64,000 nucleotides of DNA from Dermabacter sp. (GTDB taxonomy: Bacteria > Actinomycetota > Actinomycetes > Actinomycetales > Dermabacteraceae). Shown here one piece after another: positions 48,098 through 56,957 of the stretch. The first letter of the stretch is position 1; each line of letters begins with the position of its first letter. The notes beneath the pieces were generated by a model. The model did no database searches and was not told where the DNA came from. It saw only the letters and a list, made by a program, of their open reading frames with translations. The translations under genes and the position numbers were made by a program. The stretch spans positions 9,618-73,617 of the forward strand of contig JAUNTX010000009.1 in NCBI GenBank assembly GCA_030538475.1. The letters run 5' to 3'.

Positions 48098-49210
48098 ATG
48101 TCAGTGAACACCGGTGCGTACGGTGTGGGCCGCGCGCACGCCAAAGCGATCCTCATCGGGGAACACGCGGTGGTGTACGGGCACCCGGCCATCGCGTTTC
48201 CCGTTCCCGCGCTCAGGATCTCCGCGACCGCGACCCTGCTGCCGTTTCCCGACGCCGGACGCGGCGGGCACGAGGGCGTTGCCCTCGACGGCTCCCTCAC
48301 CATCGACGGCGTTCCCACACTGGATGGGACGCTGCGGATGGACGGCGCCCTCACCCTCGACGTGCCCTCGAGCGACACGGGGGATCGGCGCGGCAAGCGT
48401 CGCGTGGCCACCGTCGGCGATCCCTCCACCGGGGCCATCTACGTGGACCTGCACGGCGATCACGGCGAGGACGAGCTCGCGCATTCCGCGCTGCGCACGA
48501 TCCTCACCCACGTGGGTCAGGAGCCCGGCCGCGCCGAGGTCCACGTCGAAGGCAGCATCCCCACGGCCCGCGGCCTCGGATCCTCGGCCGCGATGGCGAG
48601 CGCGATCGCCGTGGCCGTCGCCCGCCTGTACGGCCACGAACTGACGAGCGAGGAGCGGTTCGAGCTCGTGCAGTTCGTGGAGCGCATAGCGCACGGCACC
48701 CCGAGCGGGCTCGATGCCTACGCGACGATGGCCGACGGCCCCCTCTGGTTCCAGGAGGGCCGGGCAGAACCCCTCGCGGTCGAGACCCGGCCCGCGCTGC
48801 TCATCGCCGACACGGGCATGCCGGGCCGCACACTGGATGCCGTGGCCGACGTGCGCCGGCTTCGCGGGCAGCAGCCCGAGACGGTCAATCCCGCGCTCGA
48901 GACCATCGCCTCCCTCGCGCACGAGGCGCGCGAAGGGCTCGGAACGGGGGACCTTGTTTCCGTCGGCTGCGCGATGAACGCGTGCCACGACGTGCTGCGC
49001 TCCCTCGGCGTCTCCCACCCCGCCCTCGATACGCTCGTCGAGGCCGCCCGCGAGGCCGGGGCCCTCGGGGCGAAGCTCACCGGCGGCGGCCAGGGAGGCT
49101 GCATCATCGCCCTGGCGCCCTCGGGCGCCGAACTTCCCGGTATCGCCCGCGCCCTGCGGGCCGCCGGGGCCACCCACGTGTGGGACGTCCACGAGGAGGA
49201 CCAGGAATGA
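48098..49210 (+). CDS. mvk: Mevalonate kinase
   Basis: GHMP kinase: GRAHAKAILIGEHAVVYG, PTARGLGSSAAMASAIA. First gene of an operon whose genes overlap. Confidence 0.85.
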   Translation: MSVNTGAYGVGRAHAKAILIGEHAVVYGHPAIAFPVPALRISATATLLPFPDAGRGGHEGVALDGSLTIDGVPTLDGTLRMDGALTLDVPSSDTGDRRGKRRVATVGDPSTGAIYVDLHGDHGEDELAHSALRTILTHVGQEPGRAEVHVEGSIPTARGLGSSAAMASAIAVAVARLYGHELTSEERFELVQFVERIAHGTPSGLDAYATMADGPLWFQEGRAEPLAVETRPALLIADTGMPGRTLDAVADVRRLRGQQPETVNPALETIASLAHEAREGLGTGDLVSVGCAMNACHDVLRSLGVSHPALDTLVEAAREAGALGAKLTGGGQGGCIIALAPSGAELPGIARALRAAGATHVWDVHEEDQE

Positions 49211-50199
49211 GCACGGCAACGGCCATCGCACACCCGAACATTGCGCTCGTGAAGTACTGGGGGAAGGCCGACCACGCGCTGATCCTCCCGGCCACGGGCT
49301 CGCTTTCCTTCACGCTCGACATCTTCCCAACCACGACCGAGGTGAGCCTCACCGACGGGCCCGAGGACTCGGTTGAGCTGGACGGCGCCGCCCTCACCGG
49401 AGAGGAATCGCGCAGAGTCGTCGAGGTGCTCGACCTGGTGCGCGAGGCCGCGGGCGCGAGCGCGCGGGCGCGCGTGATCTCGACCAACACGGTGCCGACG
49501 GCCGCCGGGCTCGCCTCAAGCGCCGCCGCCTTCGCGGCCCTCGCGACAGCGGCCGCAGCCGCCTACGGCCTCGAGACCACGCCCGCGGAACTCTCGCGCC
49601 TTGCCCGCCGCGGCTCCGGCTCCGCGTGCCGCTCCATCTTCGGCGGCCTCGTGCGCTGGGACCAGGGTACGGATGACGCCACGAGCGTGGCCCGCCCCCT
49701 CGAGTGGGCGGGGGAGGATCTCGCGATGATCGTCGCGGTGCTCTCGAGCGACCGCAAAAAAATCGGCAGCCGGGCCGCCATGAAGCTCACCGAACAGACC
49801 TCGCCGTACTACGCCGGGTGGGTGGCCTCCAACACCGTCCTGCTCGAGCGGGCCACCGAGGCCGTTCGCGCCGGTGACTACGAGAGCCTCGGCGAGATCG
49901 CGGAGATGAGCGCCCTGCGCATGCACGCCTCGATGTTCGGCGCGGAGCCGCCCGTCCGCTACCTCACCGCCGACAGCTTCGCCCTCTTCGATGCCGTCGC
50001 CGAGCTGCGCGCCGAGGGCCTGCTCGCCTACGCGAGCGCCGACGCGGGCCCCAACGTGAAGATTCTGTGTCGAGCTCGTGAGGCCGGGGATCTGGCCGCG
50101 CGCCTGCGTGAGAGGATGGCGGGCGTGACCCTCCATACCGCCCATGCCGGCCCTGGCGCCTTCCTCGCATCCGAGGCTGCGCCACCCGCCGCCACATGA
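49207..50199 (+). CDS. mvaD: Diphosphomevalonate decarboxylase
   Basis: AHPNIALVKYWGKADHALILPATGSLSFTLD and TAAGLASSAAAFAALA are MVD signatures. ATGA overlap with mvk. Confidence 0.88.
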   Translation: MSTATAIAHPNIALVKYWGKADHALILPATGSLSFTLDIFPTTTEVSLTDGPEDSVELDGAALTGEESRRVVEVLDLVREAAGASARARVISTNTVPTAAGLASSAAAFAALATAAAAAYGLETTPAELSRLARRGSGSACRSIFGGLVRWDQGTDDATSVARPLEWAGEDLAMIVAVLSSDRKKIGSRAAMKLTEQTSPYYAGWVASNTVLLERATEAVRAGDYESLGEIAEMSALRMHASMFGAEPPVRYLTADSFALFDAVAELRAEGLLAYASADAGPNVKILCRAREAGDLAARLRERMAGVTLHTAHAGPGAFLASEAAPPAAT

Positions 50200-51353
50200 G
50201 CACAGTTCGCGCCCCGGGCAAGCTGCTCATCGTGGGCGAATACTCGGTGGTGCGGACCGGACGGCCCGCCGTGGTCATCGCGATGGATGCGGGCATCCGC
50301 GCCGAGGCCCGCGCACTGTCCACCGCGCCAGGATCGCGCCCCGCCACTGGACTTGGCGCATTGGTGGCCTCGTCGGCCTTCGCCGACTCGCCCCTGACCT
50401 GGACGCCCGCGCCCTTGAACGCCCCCGCGGCGGACCGCGCGGCTCGCGAGCCCGCCCTGCGAGCGCTCGATGTTCTCGCCGCCTACGCACACGGCGCCGG
50501 AGCGGCCCCCACGCCCCTCGACATCACCCTCACCTCGAGCCTTGCCGACGACGCCGGCACGAAGTACGGCCTTGGCTCCTCCGGCGCCGTCGTCGTGGCC
50601 GTGGTCGCGGCCGCCGCCGACGCCTGGGGCCTCGACCTCGAGCCCGACACGCTGTTTCGGGTGAGCGCGCTCGCGGTCATCGCGGGGAGCCCAAGCGCCT
50701 CGTGCGCCGACGTGGCCGCGTCCGTGCTCGGAGGCTGGATTTTCTTCCGCTCGTTCGACCGCGCGGCCGTCCTGGAGCGGGCGCAGAGCGATGGCGTGCA
50801 CGCCGCGGTTCACGCGCCGTGGCCGGGCCTTGAACTGCGCCCCCTGCACGTGAGCGAGCGCCTGCGCGTGCTCGTCGGCTGGAGCGGATCGCCCGCCTCG
50901 ACCGCGAACCTCGTGGCCGCGCTCGACGAGGCCGCCGCGACCGGCGCCATGGACCTGGAGGAGTGGGCAGAGCGCAGCGAAGCCGCGACCCTCGCGCTCG
51001 CCCGAGACCTCGAGGCGGGAGACATCGCCGGTGTGCTCGACGGCATCCGCGCCTCCCAGCGCCTCCTCGCGGACCTGGATCACGGGGCGCGCGGCGACGG
51101 CCGGGCGCTCGGCATCCTCACCCCGGCGCTCGGGCGCATGATCGACATCGCGGAGGCCCACGGCGCCGCGGCGAAGATCTCCGGCGCGGGCGGGGGAGAC
51201 TGCATGATCGCACTCACCGACCGCGACGAGGTATCCACTCGCGTGCAGCAGACGTGGCGCAGCGAAGGCTTCACCCCGCTCGACCTGGGCCTCGGCGCCC
51301 TCCTTGTCACGACCACCCATCCCGCCCCCGCATTCGAGGAGGAGCACCGATGA
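50196..51353 (+). CDS. Phosphomevalonate kinase (GHMP type)
   Basis: APGKLLIVGEYSVV…, GLGSSGAVVVAVVAA, GAGGGD. Confidence 0.8.
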   Translation: MSTVRAPGKLLIVGEYSVVRTGRPAVVIAMDAGIRAEARALSTAPGSRPATGLGALVASSAFADSPLTWTPAPLNAPAADRAAREPALRALDVLAAYAHGAGAAPTPLDITLTSSLADDAGTKYGLGSSGAVVVAVVAAAADAWGLDLEPDTLFRVSALAVIAGSPSASCADVAASVLGGWIFFRSFDRAAVLERAQSDGVHAAVHAPWPGLELRPLHVSERLRVLVGWSGSPASTANLVAALDEAAATGAMDLEEWAERSEAATLALARDLEAGDIAGVLDGIRASQRLLADLDHGARGDGRALGILTPALGRMIDIAEAHGAAAKISGAGGGDCMIALTDRDEVSTRVQQTWRSEGFTPLDLGLGALLVTTTHPAPAFEEEHR

Positions 51354-52435
51354 ACGAATCGAGAAAAGACGACCACGTGCGGCTGGCGATGGAGCAAAAC
51401 TCCCGCAGGCGCCGCGCCGTCCACTTCGACGACGTGCGGTTCATGCATCACCCCCTCGCCGCCGTCGATGTCGCCTCCGTCTCGGTGGCCACCTCGATCG
51501 ATGAGACCCAGTGGGACCTCCCGTTCTTCATCAACGGCATGACGGGCGGCAGCGACTTCACGGGCCAGCTCAATCGCTCGCTGGCCATCGCCGCCGCCGA
51601 TACCGGCATCGCAATGGCGTCGGGGTCCATGAGCGCCTACTTCAAGAATCCCGCGTGCGCCGAAAGCTTCACGGTGCTGCGCGAGGAGAACCCGCACGGG
51701 TTCCTCATGGCGAACCTCTCCGCCAACGCGACGCCGGAGCAGGCGCGCGAGGCCGTGGACCTCATCGACGCCGACGCCCTGCAGATTCACATCAACCCCG
51801 TGCAAGAAATCGTCATGCCGGAGGGGGACCGAGAGTTCACCCATCGCCGCCGGGCGATTGAACGCATCGTCGGCGCCGTGAGCGTACCCGTGATCGTCAA
51901 GGAGGTGGGTTTCGGGATGAGCGCCGACACGGTGCTGCGCCTGGCCCGCCTGGGCGTGCGCTACGTGGACGTGGCCGGAAGCGGCGGCACGAATTTTGCG
52001 CGCATCGAGAACGCCCGGCGCTCCGGCGAGAACTTCCCCCTGCTCGATGACTGGGGGCACAGCGCCGTCGAAAGCCTCATCGATGCCCGCGGCGCCGCCC
52101 GCGACTCCGGTGTGGGCCTGCTGGCCTCCGGCGGGGTGCGCACCCCGCTCGACGTGGTCAAGGCCCTCGCGCTCGGCGCGCGCGCCGTGGGCGTGGCCGG
52201 GAGCTTCCTCGCCATCGTGCGCAACGACGGCCCGGACGCCCTCATCGAGGAGATCGAGCTGTGGCGCGAGCAGGTGCAGGCCATCATGGCGCTGCTGGGC
52301 GCCGAGACCGTGGACGCGCTGACCAGCACGGACCTGCTCATCACGGGCGAGGTGCGCGACTTCGCCGATGCCCGCGGCATCGACATGACCCGGTACGCCC
52401 GCCGCAGCGCGAGCCGCCACGCGGGAGGGGAATGA
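51350..52435 (+). CDS. fni: Isopentenyl-diphosphate delta-isomerase, type 2 (FMN-dependent)
   Basis: FFINGMTGGS…, VIVKEVGFGMS, ASGGVR are IDI-2 signatures. GAGGAG RBS. Confidence 0.85.
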   Translation: MNESRKDDHVRLAMEQNSRRRRAVHFDDVRFMHHPLAAVDVASVSVATSIDETQWDLPFFINGMTGGSDFTGQLNRSLAIAAADTGIAMASGSMSAYFKNPACAESFTVLREENPHGFLMANLSANATPEQAREAVDLIDADALQIHINPVQEIVMPEGDREFTHRRRAIERIVGAVSVPVIVKEVGFGMSADTVLRLARLGVRYVDVAGSGGTNFARIENARRSGENFPLLDDWGHSAVESLIDARGAARDSGVGLLASGGVRTPLDVVKALALGARAVGVAGSFLAIVRNDGPDALIEEIELWREQVQAIMALLGAETVDALTSTDLLITGEVRDFADARGIDMTRYARRSASRHAGGE

Positions 52436-52436
52436 C

Positions 52437-53483
52437 ATGAGTGCTCAGAATCAGGAGTTCGCCCAGATCCCGATGGCGTGGATCGGCCCGCTGCGCCTGA
52501 GCGGCAATGTGACCAGCGGCGAGATCGAGGTACCGCTCGCGACGTACGAGACCACCCTGTTCCCGTCGGTCAAGCGGGGCGCCACCGTCTCCCGCCTCGT
52601 CGAGGGGGGCATTCGCGCCACGCTCGTGGACGAACGCATGACCCGCTCGATCCTCTTTCGGGCCGACAGCGCGGCGGATGCTCACCAGGCGGCGCAGCGG
52701 ATCACCGAGGACCTTCCCGCGCTGCAGCGGGTCGTGGCGGGCACGAGCCGGTTCGCCACCCTGATCGACGTGGCCCCGCACATCGTCGGCAACCTGCTGT
52801 ACCTGCGCCTCGAGTTCACGACCGGTGACGCGGCCGGGCACAACATGGTGACCCTCGCCGCCGATGCGCTCATGCCCGCCATCGCCGAACGTGAGCCCGC
52901 CCTGCAGTACGCGAGCATTTCCGGCAACTTCTGCACCGACAAGAAGGCGTCGGCCGTCAACGGAATCCGCGGGCGCGGCAAGAACGTCATCGCGGAGATC
53001 ACGCTTCCGGCCGAGGTGCTGCGGCGCCGGCTGCGCACGAGCGCAGAGCGCATGATGGACCTCAACGTTCGCAAGAACCTCGTCGGCGGGATCGCCGCGG
53101 GATCCCTGCGCAGCGCGAATGCGCACTACGCCAACATGCTGCTCGGCTTCTACCTGGCCACCGGCCAGGACGCCGCGAACATCGTGGAGGGCTCCCAGGG
53201 CATCACCCACACCGAGGTGCGCGGCGAGGACCTCTACTTCTCGTGCACGATCCCGCACCTCATCGTGGGCAGCGTCGGCAACGGCAAGGGCCTGGACGGC
53301 GTGACCCGCACGCTCGAGCGGCTCGGATGCCGCGAGGAGCGGGAGCCGGGCGATAACGCGCGGCGCCTCGCCGTTCTCGCCGCCGCGACGGTCCTGTGTG
53401 GCGAACTGTCGCTCATGGCCGCACAAACGAATCCGGGCGAGCTCATGGCCGCCCACATCCAGTTCGAACGGAGTTCTCGATGA
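52437..53483 (+). CDS. Hydroxymethylglutaryl-CoA reductase (short actinobacterial form)
   Basis: TGDAAGHNMV, GNFCTDKKASAVN, GTVGG-like HLIVGSVGNG are HMGR catalytic-domain motifs. Confidence 0.8.
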   Translation: MSAQNQEFAQIPMAWIGPLRLSGNVTSGEIEVPLATYETTLFPSVKRGATVSRLVEGGIRATLVDERMTRSILFRADSAADAHQAAQRITEDLPALQRVVAGTSRFATLIDVAPHIVGNLLYLRLEFTTGDAAGHNMVTLAADALMPAIAEREPALQYASISGNFCTDKKASAVNGIRGRGKNVIAEITLPAEVLRRRLRTSAERMMDLNVRKNLVGGIAAGSLRSANAHYANMLLGFYLATGQDAANIVEGSQGITHTEVRGEDLYFSCTIPHLIVGSVGNGKGLDGVTRTLERLGCREEREPGDNARRLAVLAAATVLCGELSLMAAQTNPGELMAAHIQFERSSR

Positions 53484-54661
53484 CACCGGTGCCGCTCGGC
53501 ATTGACGATATTTCGGCCGCGACGGGCTCGCTCATGTTCCCGCTCGCCTCCCTCGCCGACGCGCAGGGCACGAGCGCGGGCAAGTACCACCGCGGCATCG
53601 GCCAGGTGGAAATGAGCCTCCCGAGCGCCGACGAGGACATCGTGACCCTCGCGGCCCGAGCCGCCGCCCCCATCATCGAGCGCCACGGGACGGCCGGGAT
53701 CCGCACGGTCCTCTTCGCGACCGAATCCGGCATCGATCAGTCCAAGGCCGCGGGCATCTTCGTCCACGAACTCCTGGGTCTCGATCCTCACGTGCGTGTG
53801 GTGGAGCTCAAGGAGGCGTGCTACTCCGCGACCTCTGCCCTCCAGTTCGCGCTCGGTCTCGTGGCCCGCAGGCCTGACGAGAAGGTGCTCGTCATCGCGT
53901 CCGACGTGGCCCGCTACGAACTCGACTCAAGTGGCGAGGCTACCCAGGGCAGCGGCGCCGTCGCGATGCTCGTGACCGCGAACCCCCGCATCCTTCAGAT
54001 CGAGGACGCCTCCGGCCTGTTCACGGAGAACGTGCACGACTTCTGGCGCCCGAACGATCGCAGCACCGCCATCGTTGACGGCCGCTACTCCGTGACCGTG
54101 TACCTGCGCGCCGTCGAAGCCGCGTGGAACGACTACCTGAGCCGCGGGGGCGCCGAGTTCGCCTCCATCGCCCGCGTGTGCTTCCACCAGCCGTTCACGA
54201 AGATGGCCGCCAAGGCCATGCAGACCCTCGCCAAGGTGGCAGGGGCAGACGACGTGGCCGCGCGCGTGGCCTCGCTCGAGGACACGATGGTGCTCAACCG
54301 ACGCCTCGGCAACTCCTACACGGCCTCCACCTACATGGCGCTGCTGTCCCTCCTCGAGGGCGGCGCGCTCGACGCGGGGGAGAGGGTCGGTGTCTTCAGC
54401 TACGGCTCCGGCGCCGTCGCGGAGTTCTTCACCGGCCTGCTCGTCGACGGCTACCGCGACCAGCTGCGGCTCGGGGCCATGGACCGGATGCTCGACGAGC
54501 GCCGCGTCATCGAATACCCCGAGTACCGCGAGCGACACATCGCCTTCGACCGCGTGGGCGACCTCGAGACGCCGCACGAAACGTCCGGGCCCTTCCGCTT
54601 CGCTGGCGTGCGCGACTCGATCCGCGTGTACGAGAAGCTCGAGGGCTCTCCCAGCGCCTGA
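53480..54661 (+). CDS. mvaS: Hydroxymethylglutaryl-CoA synthase
   Basis: Thiolase-fold initiation enzyme: LGIDDISAATGSLMFPL…, EACYSATSAL (active-site Cys), HQPFTKM. Confidence 0.85.
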   Translation: MTPVPLGIDDISAATGSLMFPLASLADAQGTSAGKYHRGIGQVEMSLPSADEDIVTLAARAAAPIIERHGTAGIRTVLFATESGIDQSKAAGIFVHELLGLDPHVRVVELKEACYSATSALQFALGLVARRPDEKVLVIASDVARYELDSSGEATQGSGAVAMLVTANPRILQIEDASGLFTENVHDFWRPNDRSTAIVDGRYSVTVYLRAVEAAWNDYLSRGGAEFASIARVCFHQPFTKMAAKAMQTLAKVAGADDVAARVASLEDTMVLNRRLGNSYTASTYMALLSLLEGGALDAGERVGVFSYGSGAVAEFFTGLLVDGYRDQLRLGAMDRMLDERRVIEYPEYRERHIAFDRVGDLETPHETSGPFRFAGVRDSIRVYEKLEGSPSA

Positions 54662-54759
54662 TCCGGGCCGGGGTAGCGCATGCCACACCCCGAGAAGTTG
54701 GCGGCCAGGCACCCCGTGAGCTAGAGTTTTATTTCGTTCGGCCTTGGCCGGAAATACCC

Positions 54760-54834
54760 TGGGGTATGGTGTAATTGGCAACACGGCTGATTCTGGTTCA
54801 GTTGTTCTAGGTTCGAGTCCTGGTACCCCAGCCA
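54760..54834 (+). tRNA. tRNA-Gln (anticodon CTG)
   Basis: Cloverleaf folds by hand: acceptor TGGGGTA/TACCCCA (U1-A72 as in bacterial tRNA-Gln), D-stem GTGT/ACAC, anticodon stem GCTGA/TCAGT, loop TTCTGGT, T-arm CTAGG-TTCGAGT-CCTGG, G73 then CCA. Confidence 0.85.
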
Positions 54835-54838
54835 CACG

Positions 54839-54870
54839 CCTCGGGATTCCTCGCGAATCCCGAGGCTTTT
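54839..54870 (+). terminator. Rho-independent terminator after tRNA-Gln
   Basis: Perfect 11-bp stem CCTCGGGATTC / GAATCCCGAGG followed by CTTTT. Confidence 0.75.
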
Positions 54871-55017
54871 GCGTTGCCTGGGGCCTGGCATCAGCCTCGG
54901 GCTGGGGTGGTGGGCGCAGGAGCCCGCTCCAGGCGCGGCCTGCGAGCTGGATAAAATCCACACACTCTCAGGTGTTCTGTGCAAGGGTTTTATCCGCTGG
55001 GGATCAGGATGAGTTAT

Positions 55018-55917
55018 TCACTCCCAGATATGACGCTGTGGATTCCACGCGCCTGTTGCGGCGGACGTGAGCACCGGATCAGCGAACCCGGCCACCGCGG
55101 TGAGAACGTCGGCGAACGATGCTGGGAGCTCTGCCTCACGGTGCGTTCGCGTGCGCCAGGCGCGGTACTTCTGTTGAGCCCCTTCCTGCATTGGGTCAAG
55201 TGTGGGCAGCAGTGGTGCGAGGTCAACCGTGCGGTACTCCGCGACGGTCTCAAGTGACGCACGAAGGTCGCTGGCATCGACCGGGTGGAGCCCGACGAGC
55301 GTATAGACGTCGGCGAAGTCGCGCCAGCGGGTGTTGGCCACTCCGCGGTCGATGGCGGTCACGATCTTCTCCGCGAGCACCATTGTGAGTGGGTAGCCGA
55401 GGAGCCTGACAGTGGGTTGGTCAAGAGGCACGATGCGTGGCAAGTCGATGAGGCGCGGTGCGGGCCAGATCGGGTCACCAAAGTTCACGTCTATACCGAT
55501 CGCCAGCCGAGATTTCCCCAGATGTGCCGTGAGCTTCACTCGGACTCCCGCATACTCGTCGGCGTCTCGAATCGTTGTTGCGGTGATGCTGGAGGGGTCG
55601 AAGATGAGCCCGTCGGGAACAGTCAGAGCAGCGATGGCGCGAACCCGCTCGGTGACTTCTTCTGGATCTCCCGAAAGTCGGGTGGCTTGCAGATCGATGT
55701 CCTTCGTCGGCCGGCGCGCCGCGAAGGCTGCGAGGAGGACGCCGCCCTTGAGCACGAAGTCCTCCCGGTACGCAGATGCCGTGATCCGCGCCAAGAGTCC
55801 TTCGAGGGCATACAGCGTCATCAGTTCTTGAACGTCGGCCCCCGTGCGCCGGGCGAAACTGCGAATGGCAATGGCAGCGTCGCCAGCAGGGGTTCCATGT
55901 TGCGGAAGTGGGGTCAC
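55018..55917 (-). CDS. AbiEii/AbiGii-family nucleotidyltransferase toxin (DUF1814)
   Basis: MTPLPQHGTPAGDAAIAIRSF…EDFVLKGGVLLAAFAARRPTKDIDLQA… is the AbiEii NTase fold; 4-nt overlap with the upstream AbiEi gene. Confidence 0.8.
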   Translation of the reverse strand: MTPLPQHGTPAGDAAIAIRSFARRTGADVQELMTLYALEGLLARITASAYREDFVLKGGVLLAAFAARRPTKDIDLQATRLSGDPEEVTERVRAIAALTVPDGLIFDPSSITATTIRDADEYAGVRVKLTAHLGKSRLAIGIDVNFGDPIWPAPRLIDLPRIVPLDQPTVRLLGYPLTMVLAEKIVTAIDRGVANTRWRDFADVYTLVGLHPVDASDLRASLETVAEYRTVDLAPLLPTLDPMQEGAQQKYRAWRTRTHREAELPASFADVLTAVAGFADPVLTSAATGAWNPQRHIWE

Positions 55918-56495
55918 AGCAGAACCTCCAGGGCCTGCCGGATGGCAGGAAGCGCCGACGGGAAGTTGCCCGCCATGGCAAGCAGCGTGCCGGGGCTACT
56001 GTCGCGCCTGCTCAACCACTGCTTGAGAGAGCCGATGGCAAGGTCGCTGCCCCACGCGTGCCGCAACCGGAATGCATCAATCAGCGTGCGTTCGGCCGAG
56101 TACAGGCCAATGGAGCGCCCGCCCGGCAGGGCGTATTGATCGCGGCCGATGTCAAAAGTGTCGGTGGCGAAGCTGTGCCAGGTAATAGGCGCGTGACGGA
56201 CGGTGACAGGCTGTGTGCCACGGGGGATAGCGATGTCGCTGCGAGTGGGGATTTCGTCGGTGAGCCCATGGAGAGACAGCGCCGTGAGAAGGCACAGTGT
56301 TGCGTCGGGCTTCTTCGTTGTGATCGCCATCCATGCCGCGGTGGTGTCATCTGTGAGTCCTGCGCGGAGAAAAAGGCCGGGCGAGACGCGCTCGAACTCG
56401 CCTGAGCTAAGAAGGAGGTCGAGGCCGTGGCGGGTGAGTCCCTGGTGGGCGAGGTCTTCGTAGCGAAGGAGGTCGGGCAGTGTCGCGGTATCCAT
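55914..56495 (-). CDS. AbiEi-family antitoxin/transcriptional regulator
   Basis: MDTATLPDLLRYEDLAHQGLTRHGLDLLLSSGEFERVSPGLFL is the AbiEi N-terminal winged-helix domain. AGGAGG RBS; paired with AbiEii. Confidence 0.75.
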   Translation of the reverse strand: MDTATLPDLLRYEDLAHQGLTRHGLDLLLSSGEFERVSPGLFLRAGLTDDTTAAWMAITTKKPDATLCLLTALSLHGLTDEIPTRSDIAIPRGTQPVTVRHAPITWHSFATDTFDIGRDQYALPGGRSIGLYSAERTLIDAFRLRHAWGSDLAIGSLKQWLSRRDSSPGTLLAMAGNFPSALPAIRQALEVLL

Positions 56496-56510
56496 CGTTG
56501 CCTCCTGTTC

Positions 56511-56555
56511 GGCAGAAACTCAGACACACACAGCATACCTGTCGTAGTTTCTGCC
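56511..56555 (-). promoter_or_regulatory. Inverted-repeat operator in the abiEi promoter
   Basis: Perfect 10-bp arms GGCAGAAACT … AGTTTCTGCC separated by 25 nt, about 15 bp upstream of the abiEi RBS. Confidence 0.55.
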
Positions 56556-56697
56556 GTAAAGCGGTGGGGTGCCGCGGCGGGCCCTGAACGGCACCCAAGG
56601 CCCCGCGATGCCCCGCGACTCAGATCACACGCTCTCAGTTTGGGGCCACTCCGGGTGGCTGCTAAGCTATTCAAGGCTTCGGAAGCGAAGATCACTG

Positions 56698-56773
56698 GCC
56701 CCGTTCGTCTAGCGGCCTAGGACGTCGCCCTCTCACGGCGGTAACACCGGTTCAAATCCGGTACGGGGTACCA
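56698..56773 (+). tRNA. tRNA-Glu (anticodon CTC)
   Basis: Acceptor GCCCCGT/ACGGGGT (G1·U72, common in actinobacterial tRNA-Glu), short D-stem GTC/GAC, anticodon stem TCGCC/GGCGG, loop CTCTCAC, T-arm ACCGG-TTCAAAT-CCGGT, A73 then CCA. Confidence 0.8.
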
Positions 56774-56780
56774 GAGCATG

Positions 56781-56816
56781 AAGGCCCGATCACTTCGGTG
56801 ATCGGGCCTTTGTCGT
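56781..56816 (+). terminator. Rho-independent terminator after tRNA-Glu
   Basis: Perfect 13-bp stem AAGGCCCGATCAC / GTGATCGGGCCTT, loop TTCG, then TGTCGTG. Confidence 0.7.
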
Positions 56817-56957
56817 GCGTGAACGTCTGCGCGTGCGGGCGCGGACGCTCATCTTCGTGGGGACCGTCCTGATGCAGGGGCCCGGGAGAGAGGTCTAGAC
56901 TGGAGGAGCCAGGTAACCCGGCTCACATGGGAGTGGGCACTGTTCAGGAGGAACAAG

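Follow-up and report, generated by a model that had tools for sequence, protein, structure and literature searches.

A probably acquired AbiE toxin-antitoxin operon between the tRNA-Gln and tRNA-Glu genes of a Dermabacter sp.

This analysis concerns a 64-kb stretch of DNA (64,000 nt, called the window here, with its coordinates used throughout) from a metagenome-assembled genome labelled Dermabacter sp., and in particular the spacer of 1,863 nt (54835-56697) that lies between its tRNA-Gln and tRNA-Glu genes. This spacer was found to hold a pair of minus-strand genes, abiEi and abiEii, and we consider it very likely that these represent a complete and apparently functional AbiE operon which was acquired horizontally, lies just 3' of tRNA-Gln and splits the tRNA-Gln/tRNA-Glu pair. 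The evidence for this comes from the family identity and conserved motifs of the two gene products, from the short spacer found in nearly all relatives of the locus, and from a promoter dyad with arms that covary among homologous loci. The tRNA genes were called with ARAGORN and Rfam, and the measured spacer agrees with the roughly 1.9 kb given in the original prediction, which had been made from the sequence alone. The genes concerned are as follows.

54760-54834, plus strand: tRNA-Gln (anticodon CTG), called by ARAGORN and by Rfam (tRNA, 58 bits)
55018-55917, minus strand: abiEii, 299 aa, GTG start, encoding a DUF1814 nucleotidyltransferase toxin
55914-56495, minus strand: abiEi, 193 aa, ATG start, encoding an antitoxin and autorepressor by family
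56698-56773, plus strand: tRNA-Glu (anticodon CTC), called by ARAGORN and Rfam

The abiEi and abiEii genes and their products

The assignment of the two genes was made by comparison of their products with profile collections and solved structures. AbiEii matched Pfam PF08843 over profile positions 2-235 of 238 (E=4.8e-34; 118.8 bits, with a cut-off of 22.5) and the AbiEii model of PADLOC at E=8.6e-80, and its sole solved relative at E<0.01 was PDB 9hlo_B (E=2.2e-25). This chain, 9HLO chain B, was deposited as AbiGII, and we take it to be the Streptococcus agalactiae toxin on the grounds that the residue numbering agrees. AbiEi, which is entered in NCBI as a hypothetical protein, matched the AbiEi model of PADLOC over residues 8-192 (E=3.2e-45) and the structure of S. 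agalactiae AbiEi, PDB 6y8q, over residues 25-193 (E=3.6e-8). The two genes overlap by 4 nt (GTGA, 55914-55917) with the antitoxin gene first, an overlap that is present in all intact homologous loci and also in S. agalactiae. Using these results, it was possible to confirm the abiEi-abiEii identity, the minus-strand orientation and the 4-nt overlap as they had originally been proposed.

Alignment with 9hlo_B places motifs I and II of AbiEii at K57-G58-G59 and, after 13 residues, D73-I-D75, with R69; motif III (L-A-E-K184...R191) and motif IV (R199-D-F-A-D203) were matched residue for residue. Residues G58/G59, R69, D73, D75, K184, R191 and D203 correspond in this way to G49/G50, R63, D67, D69, K173, R180 and D192 of S. 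agalactiae, whose AbiEii, as mutagenesis has shown, needs the motifs hG[GS]-x(n)-DhD, K...R and +DxxD for toxicity (PMC3985639). Two residues before the DxD, T71 aligns with T65 of S. agalactiae, the Ser/Thr phosphoacceptor that is used in type VII neutralisation (bioRxiv 10.64898/2026.01.19.700257). In AbiEi the loop T79-D80-E81-I82-P83, invariant in 17 homologues, aligns with TDEIP of 6y8q, and its D80-E81-I82 is the counterpart of the flexible D85-E86-I87 loop which S. agalactiae AbiEi requires for toxin binding and antitoxicity (bioRxiv 10.64898/2026.01.19.700257). By alignment, all of the catalytic and neutralisation residues that were checked are present in AbiEii and AbiEi. An AlphaFold model of AbiEi, built on the 17-sequence alignment, reached a pLDDT of 57 and a pTM of 0.46 and was too poor to lend support or to be used in a fold search.

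Among solved structures, the AbiE system of S. agalactiae (AbiEi, SAG1284; AbiEii, SAG1285; structures 6Y8Q and 9HLO) gives the best match to both proteins of the window, and the two systems have in common the antitoxin-first gene order, 4-nt overlap, all four nucleotidyltransferase motifs, the T65 equivalent and the DEI loop. The proteins of the two systems are alignable by HMMER but distant, with low identity. They also differ in setting, the window holding an islet of 1.8 kb in a tRNA spacer of a high-G+C actinobacterium and S. agalactiae AbiE being part of a conjugative element of 50-90 kb.

The tRNA spacer with and without the gene pair

Relatives of the locus were collected by scanning the neighbouring IclR protein against one genome per species, which gave 80 loci from Micrococcales and related actinobacteria, 53 of them holding both tRNAs. 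The Gln-Glu spacer was found to measure 30-112 nt (median 89) in 52 of these 53, and so the two genes do not occupy this spacer in all relatives. In Dermabacter hominis and Helcobacillus massiliensis the order is HMG-CoA reductase, HMG-CoA synthase, tRNA-Gln, 75 nt, tRNA-Glu, Usp and IclR, with the same flanks as in the window, and their 75-nt spacer is the best available candidate for the empty site. The comparison across relatives that the original prediction had proposed is thereby in favour of an abiE pair inserted between the tRNAs.

The single other relative with an occupied Gln-Glu spacer is Timonella sp. A28 (L009, 11093-14772), in which 3,680 nt carry an unrelated cargo consisting of an S33-type hydrolase, a GNAT acetyltransferase, a PaaX-like fragment and an endonuclease/exonuclease/phosphatase-family protein, with no match to a defence model. 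The locus had earlier been described as a minimal defence islet at a tRNA hotspot. An inserted islet is what was found; the terms hotspot and defence apply only in part, given one further occupied spacer with unrelated cargo and an anti-phage role assigned by family alone.

Base composition was also compared. The G+C content at third codon positions is 0.71 for abiEii and 0.76 for abiEi, against 0.84-0.91 for the neighbouring genes and a median of 0.865 for the long open reading frames (ORFs) of the window, and these lower values point to horizontal acquisition. The following features bear on the limits of the acquired DNA.

56617-56697, plus strand: retained ancestral Gln-Glu spacer, aligning with the entire 75-nt Dermabacter/Helcobacillus spacer
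56640-56645 and 56663-56668, plus strand: promoter-like pair for tRNA-Glu, TTGGGG, 17 nt, TAAGCT (Dermabacter/Helcobacillus counterpart TTGGAA-17-TAAAGT)
56557-56616, no strand assigned: G+C-rich filler between the operator and the ancestral spacer, with no similarity to any fetched locus
54959-54971, plus strand: left copy of a 13-nt direct repeat, CACACACTCTCAG, a candidate inner insertion boundary in the loop of an 8-bp inverted repeat
56626-56638, plus strand: right copy of the 13-nt direct repeat, CACACGCTCTCAG, within the ancestral spacer
54949-54956 and 54988-54995, no strand assigned: 8-bp inverted repeat GGATAAAA...TTTTATCC with a 31-nt loop

The local score of the alignment between 56617-56697 and the 75-nt spacer was equalled in 4 of 500 shuffles. 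The foreign DNA most likely spans the region from the tRNA-Gln 3' end (about 54833) to about 56616, and as the ancestral spacer with its promoter-like element is still attached to tRNA-Glu, the insertion probably left the expression of this tRNA intact. A conserved -10-like box (GGTAGAGT or GGTAAGGT) was seen approximately 20-45 nt before tRNA-Glu in many Micrococcales spacers of 60-110 nt, and such comparison suggests that tRNA-Glu often has a promoter of its own in this order. The copy number of tRNA-Glu ranges from 1 to 4 among the relatives, with one copy in the window.

Among homologous loci, conservation of the module extends from about -65 relative to the abiEi start to precisely the abiEii stop codon, and the downstream flanks of the homologues are unrelated to each other and to the window. 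The non-coding flanks of the window pair (54835-55017 and 56557-56697) have no significant similarity to the fetched loci or to the rest of the window. The 13-nt direct repeat brackets the module and has just two copies in the 64 kb; a flank-to-flank repeat of such quality arose in 8 of 300 shuffles (p~0.03), making it a weak candidate for the junction. There is also a tandem 10-mer, GCCCCGCGAT / GCCCCGCGAC, at 56600-56619, at the end of the filler and just ahead of the retained spacer. It resembles 'CCCCAGC|GAT', that is the Dermabacter tRNA-Gln 3' end followed by the start of the spacer, and may be an att-like remnant, for which the evidence is weak, the motif occurring 5 times in the window. 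A second copy of the tRNA-Gln 3' end was not found in the window with up to 3 mismatches allowed. Of the marks of a tRNA-targeted integrative island, the locus thus offers just the short CCCCGCGA(T/C) resemblance and the 13-nt direct repeat.

The 8-bp inverted repeat just 3' of abiEii had been put forward as an island boundary or a terminator. The repeat is indeed present, but it was found downstream of abiEii in none of 21 homologous loci and, with the conserved unit ending at the abiEii stop and the flanks being unrelated, is therefore specific to this locus. A role as terminator was rejected owing to the weak A+T-rich stem, the 31-nt loop, the lack of conservation and the lack of a U-tract on the abiE strand; as to a boundary, what is left is the weak 13-nt candidate within its loop.

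An empty site in the same species was sought through look-ups of the IclR and Usp proteins, which returned short contigs only. One of these, 100% identical and from an independent read-set assembly, carries the abiE pair, and two others stop short of the spacer, one within tRNA-Glu and one within iclR. An exact-protein look-up of the HMG-CoA synthase, made to the same end, gave no match at all.

The remainder of the spacer and its surroundings contain the following elements.

54838-54871, plus strand: strong terminator-like hairpin (12-bp stem, 54838-54866, with a 5-nt loop, then TTTTG), from a terminator scan and predicted RNA folds
56781-56810, 3' of tRNA-Glu: perfect 13-bp hairpin terminator, from the repeat search

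The first of these hairpins lies directly 3' of tRNA-Gln and is oriented to terminate its transcription, and so would keep tRNA-Gln read-through from entering abiEii in antisense. No counterpart exists in the Dermabacter Gln-Glu spacer, and the hairpin is therefore probably part of the inserted DNA. The tRNA-Gln gene ends in an encoded CCA (54832-54834), where Dermabacter, Helcobacillus and Brachybacterium have CGA or CGC, which fits an insertion junction directly after the tRNA body. Rfam at E<=1 gave just the two tRNAs in this region, with no riboswitch or small RNA in the spacer.

The tRNA pair had been described as lying downstream of gltX. The two tRNAs are adjacent in relatives as stated, but gltX (end 48086) is not directly upstream in the window, a six-gene mevalonate-pathway cluster (48098-54661) intervening between it and tRNA-Gln. 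This cluster encodes two GHMP kinases, a diphosphomevalonate decarboxylase, an FMN-dependent dehydrogenase-family protein (presumably IDI-2-like), HMG-CoA reductase and HMG-CoA synthase. The genes for the last two enzymes are placed likewise in Dermabacter and Helcobacillus, which have a gltX-tRNA-Gln interval of about 6.75 kb as in the window, and not so in Brachybacterium. Across the relatives the distance from gltX to tRNA-Gln ranges from 0.13 to 6.8 kb, from which it follows that the variable interval here is the one upstream of tRNA-Gln rather than the Gln-Glu spacer.

The promoter dyad upstream of abiEi

The promoter region had been reported to hold perfect 10-bp inverted repeats of the kind that AbiEi binds for negative autoregulation. 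Both arms, GGCAGAAACT (56511-56520) and AGTTTCTGCC (56546-56555), were found in the sequence, and the perfect repeat is actually one base longer on each side, forming 11 bp as CGGCAGAAACT (56510-56520) and AGTTTCTGCCG (56546-56556). A repeat search extended it imperfectly to arms of 22 nt that lie 13 nt apart and have 82% complementarity. The elements of this region are as follows.

56510-56556, minus strand: predicted dyad operator of 47 bp, identified by repeat search, by conservation and covariation in 44 loci and by a layout like that of S. agalactiae PabiE
56537 to 56532, minus strand: conserved -10-like TATGCT at the dyad centre
56560 to 56555, minus strand: -35-like TTTACG overlapping the outer dyad arm
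56501-56505, minus strand: GGAGG ribosome-binding site, separated by 5 nt from the ATG of abiEi, its GGAGG block conserved in the upstream alignment

The sequence TATGCT agrees with the TANNNT pattern of actinobacterial -10 boxes. A transcript starting approximately 7 nt past it would have a leader of about 29 nt that holds the right arm only.

Conservation of this region was assessed in 57 metagenome loci with AbiEi relatives (52-83% identity), from which the 85 nt before the start codon were aligned for 44 distinct loci. Conservation begins sharply about 65 nt before the abiEi start codon, and the consensus of the 44 loci is GTCAnCAGAAACCATnACAGGTATGCTnTATCTGTAACGGATTCTGTTGA. With alignment columns 39-59 and 65-85 taken as the two arms, 74.8% of cells are complementary, compared with 32-38% in controls in which one arm was slid by 1-3 columns. 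Changes on both sides were found at 16 of the 21 arm positions, compared with 8-12 in the slid controls, and the observed covariation was reached by none of 500 shuffles. Some loci have long and near-perfect arms, which in L131 measure 22-23 nt, and the TATGCT centre is non-palindromic yet among the best-conserved positions. From this alignment the half-site consensus of the actinobacterial AbiE clade would be roughly C..CAGAAA-N5/6-ACAG, with two half-sites flanking TATGCT in a dyad of about 47 bp.

The layout is that of known AbiEi-type operators. The S. agalactiae operator has a perfect 11-bp repeat, TGTTGCTTTTA-N27-TAAAAGCAACA, within 23-bp arms that are 3 bp apart and lie over the -35 and -10 boxes, and transcription there starts 26 bp before the ATG (PMC3985639), in comparison with the predicted leader of the window given above. 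In both cases perfect 11-bp arms, with a gap of 25 nt in the window and 27 nt in S. agalactiae, sit within arms of about 23 bp that span the promoter; the operator sequences themselves are unrelated (CGGCAGAAACT in the window, TGTTGCTTTTA in S. agalactiae). The autoregulation of Rv2827c in M. tuberculosis operates through inverted repeats of 23 bp with 13 bp between them (PMC7319586), a gap equal to that between the 22-nt arms of the window. Rv2827c is larger, and has two repeat pairs with negative cooperativity where the window has a single dyad. Given the compensatory changes in 44 loci and this shared layout, it is well supported that the inverted repeat is the type of site that AbiEi binds, as had originally been suggested, and AbiEi would be expected to bind it here.

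Relatives, proposed function and alternative explanations

Searches for relatives of the pair found 578 homologues, many of which carry the NCBI name AbiEi-family antitoxin. The close ones (74-80% identity) are spread over the Actinomycetota, with Microbacterium, Leucobacter, Rathayibacter, Brooklawnia, Ruania and Schaalia among the genera. Some of the homologues stand alone as two-gene inserts amid housekeeping genes, and others are accompanied, near tRNA-Pro(ggg), by one WYL-domain and one HTH_17-family protein. The clade was seen near tRNA-Pro(ggg) at four distinct loci (L089, L120, L142 and L144), and in L089 (2248-5478) the homologue is directly downstream of a tyrosine integrase gene at the tRNA. 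A homologue also directly follows a tyrosine integrase in a Microbacterium island (L147-L150), between glutamine-synthetase genes, where no tRNA was found. Two more distant clade members are associated with tRNA-Gln. In L121 (1100-2078; AbiEi 62% identity) 5 nt separate the abiEii stop codon from the tRNA-Gln 3' end, the two genes converging as they do in the window, and the gene on the other side is, as we read the sequence, glycerate-kinase-like and not tRNA-Glu. In L117 (1991-4415) the genes after tRNA-Gln are a solitary abiEi and, next to it, BrxA and BrxB of a BREX island. No relatives were found in viral contigs by a scan with the AbiEi alignment, and the plasmid and phage collections held only distant (<60% identity) AbiEii relatives. 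The simplest reading would be that tRNA-targeting islands carry the pair as cargo close to their integrase, and that in the window only the pair is left.

A distant AbiE-like pair was also seen in Ruania rhizosphaerae (L079, 11273-12828), approximately 570 nt from the orthologous iclR, a place at which the two tRNAs are not found. Its proteins are 31% and 42% identical to those of the window, and its toxin matches the Pfam AbiEii family at E=3.6e-32.

Based on these relationships, a mode of action can be proposed. The minus-strand promoter with TATGCT (56537-56532) would drive abiEi and abiEii as one transcript, with translation coupled by the GTGA overlap. AbiEi is predicted to bind DNA through its N-terminal part and to act as antitoxin through its C-terminal part, and two copies of it, placed on the two half-sites of the 47-bp dyad astride the -10 box, would shut off their own operon by negative autoregulation. 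Free AbiEii would most likely attach nucleotides to tRNA 3' ends, thereby bringing translation and growth to a halt. In the best current model, type VII, binding of the D80-E81-I82 loop of AbiEi would lead the toxin to phosphorylate itself on T71. Should the supply of AbiEi be lost, for instance when a phage shuts off host expression, the toxin would be freed and the infection aborted.

This proposal draws on several characterised systems. AbiE, which is ranked fourth in abundance among defence systems, has been moved from type IV to type VII on the basis of toxin autophosphorylation induced by the antitoxin (bioRxiv 10.64898/2026.01.19.700257). The founding member, AbiE of Lactococcus lactis pNP40, has a demonstrated abortive-infection phenotype; it is plasmid-borne in a low-G+C Firmicute, has about 25% identity to the streptococcal pair (PMC3985639) and is compared with the window by description only. 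The MenAT systems of M. tuberculosis (MenA4-MenT4, Rv2827c-Rv2826c; MenA3-MenT3, Rv1044-Rv1045) come from the same phylum as the window and likewise combine a DUF1814 nucleotidyltransferase toxin with an AbiEi-like antitoxin. MenT toxins act on tRNAs, modifying their 3' ends, and the neutralisation of MenT3 proceeds through induced phosphorylation (bioRxiv 10.64898/2026.01.19.700257). No MenT or MenA chain was among the PDB sequence matches at E<0.01-0.1, which places the window pair nearer to the streptococcal type. RlegTA and SanaTA, again compared by description only, belong to the same toxin superfamily and have the same predicted phosphoacceptor and antitoxin loop, but are proteobacterial, and SanaA is a far shorter protein, without the complete AbiEi architecture. 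These related DUF1814 pairs were assayed against phage T7, the plaquing of which such pairs reduce.

A number of observations weigh against a complete, acquired and functional operon. AbiEii passes its Pfam family comfortably, but the profile check of AbiEi, which the original prediction had also called for, ended at 23.3 bits against AbiEi_4, just short of the curated cut-off of 25 bits, and NCBIfam gave no match for AbiEii or AbiEi. No integrase, clear att duplication or transposase marks the arrival of the islet, and there is no integrase ORF in the spacer. A generic sigma-70 scan of 54600-56900 gave no promoter, leaving the -10 call to conservation and the TANNNT pattern. Among homologues, abiEii is frameshifted, truncated or absent, with abiEi and the operator intact, in approximately 20 of the 44 distinct loci (L090, L091, L096, L097, L100, L101, L104, L107-L110, L112-L115, L117, L122-L125 and L131), from which AbiEi, as antitoxin and repressor, appears often to survive toxin loss in the clade. 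The AbiE system of S. agalactiae gave E. coli no protection against 32 coliphages, so that family membership is no guarantee of defence. It is from the relationships described above that we infer toxicity, neutralisation, DNA binding and phage defence for the window locus, as well as the tRNA target of AbiEii and the phosphorylation of T71, and of these the anti-phage role, which comes from the family alone and within it from L. lactis AbiE, is the weakest link.

It is accordingly possible, if somewhat doubtful, that the pair is an AbiE module with no anti-phage role, a selfish or stabilising chromosomal pair left behind by an integrative element and kept because its loss is harmful. Besides the failure against coliphages, this would agree with S. 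agalactiae AbiE stabilising plasmids and being located on an integrative conjugative element (PMC3985639), with the homologues that adjoin integrases in islands, and with the window having no further defence gene beside the pair. Set against it are the phage phenotypes of lactococcal AbiE and the related DUF1814 pairs and the place of one homologue, L117, in a BREX island, and the two roles are not mutually exclusive. That the operon is an inert, decaying relic, with its toxin, its promoter or both dead, we regard as improbable. The frequent damage to abiEii in homologous loci would be in keeping with decay, but in the window both ORFs are intact and full length, the tested catalytic and neutralisation residues are all kept, the operator arms are perfect over 11 bp, and a 100% identical copy is present in the independent read-set assembly.

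Two further explanations are very unlikely in our judgement. The inverted repeat could act not as a protein operator but as a hairpin of the abiE leader RNA, serving attenuation or stability, or as a recombination site, and an RNA stem would likewise show compensatory changes in its arms. Mismatches in the outer arms, however, are G-T in 47 cases and A-C in 77, and an RNA stem would favour G-T, so that a DNA site is indicated rather than an RNA hairpin. The hairpin was considered and rejected on this mismatch pattern and on the non-palindromic TATGCT at the centre, past which the transcript would hold one arm only; the same architecture is, in addition, the proven AbiEi site in S. agalactiae (PMC3985639) and M. 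tuberculosis (PMC7319586). An ancestral arrangement, in which the pair always lay between the tRNAs and was lost by the relatives, is held by us to be just as improbable. It gains something from L121, with its abiEii next to tRNA-Gln in the same relative orientation, but that locus has no tRNA-Glu on its other side, and 52 of the 53 lineages sampled would have to have lost the pair, even the nearest of them, whose flanking genes are identical; the third-position G+C content well under that of neighbouring genes and the scatter of the clade over unrelated contexts argue against it too. A horizontally acquired AbiE operon with an AbiEi-type DNA operator is thus the reading that we retain.

Since this is a family of toxins that modify the 3' ends of tRNAs and the operon sits inside a tRNA pair, the module could conceivably make the expression of the neighbouring tRNA-Gln and tRNA-Glu, or the status of their 3' ends, depend on the toxin-antitoxin state. 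The geometry that prompts this idea is an AbiEi-bound, DNA-bending operator some 110-130 bp from the divergent tRNA-Glu promoter, with the 3' end of the operon facing tRNA-Gln. We offer it as pure speculation with only the slightest chance of being correct; if it were true, the recurrence of the clade beside tRNA-Gln (L117 and L121) could represent selection and not integrase site preference.

For annotation, these results mean that two 'hypothetical proteins' of this metagenome-assembled genome are a complete AbiE pair, and that acquired DNA is present between tRNA-Gln and tRNA-Glu in this lineage of the Dermabacteraceae. The knowledge of AbiE as such is unchanged, the pair being an ordinary member of a very abundant and well-studied family in a place that is slightly unusual but not unprecedented. 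The main by-products are the operator consensus, which would be usable for the actinobacterial AbiE clade of Microbacterium, Leucobacter, Rathayibacter, Schaalia, Brooklawnia and Ruania, and the record of integrase and tRNA associations. The clade frequently moves in the company of tyrosine integrases at tRNA-Pro or tRNA-Gln, and in many of its loci decay has left the AbiEi repressor on its own.

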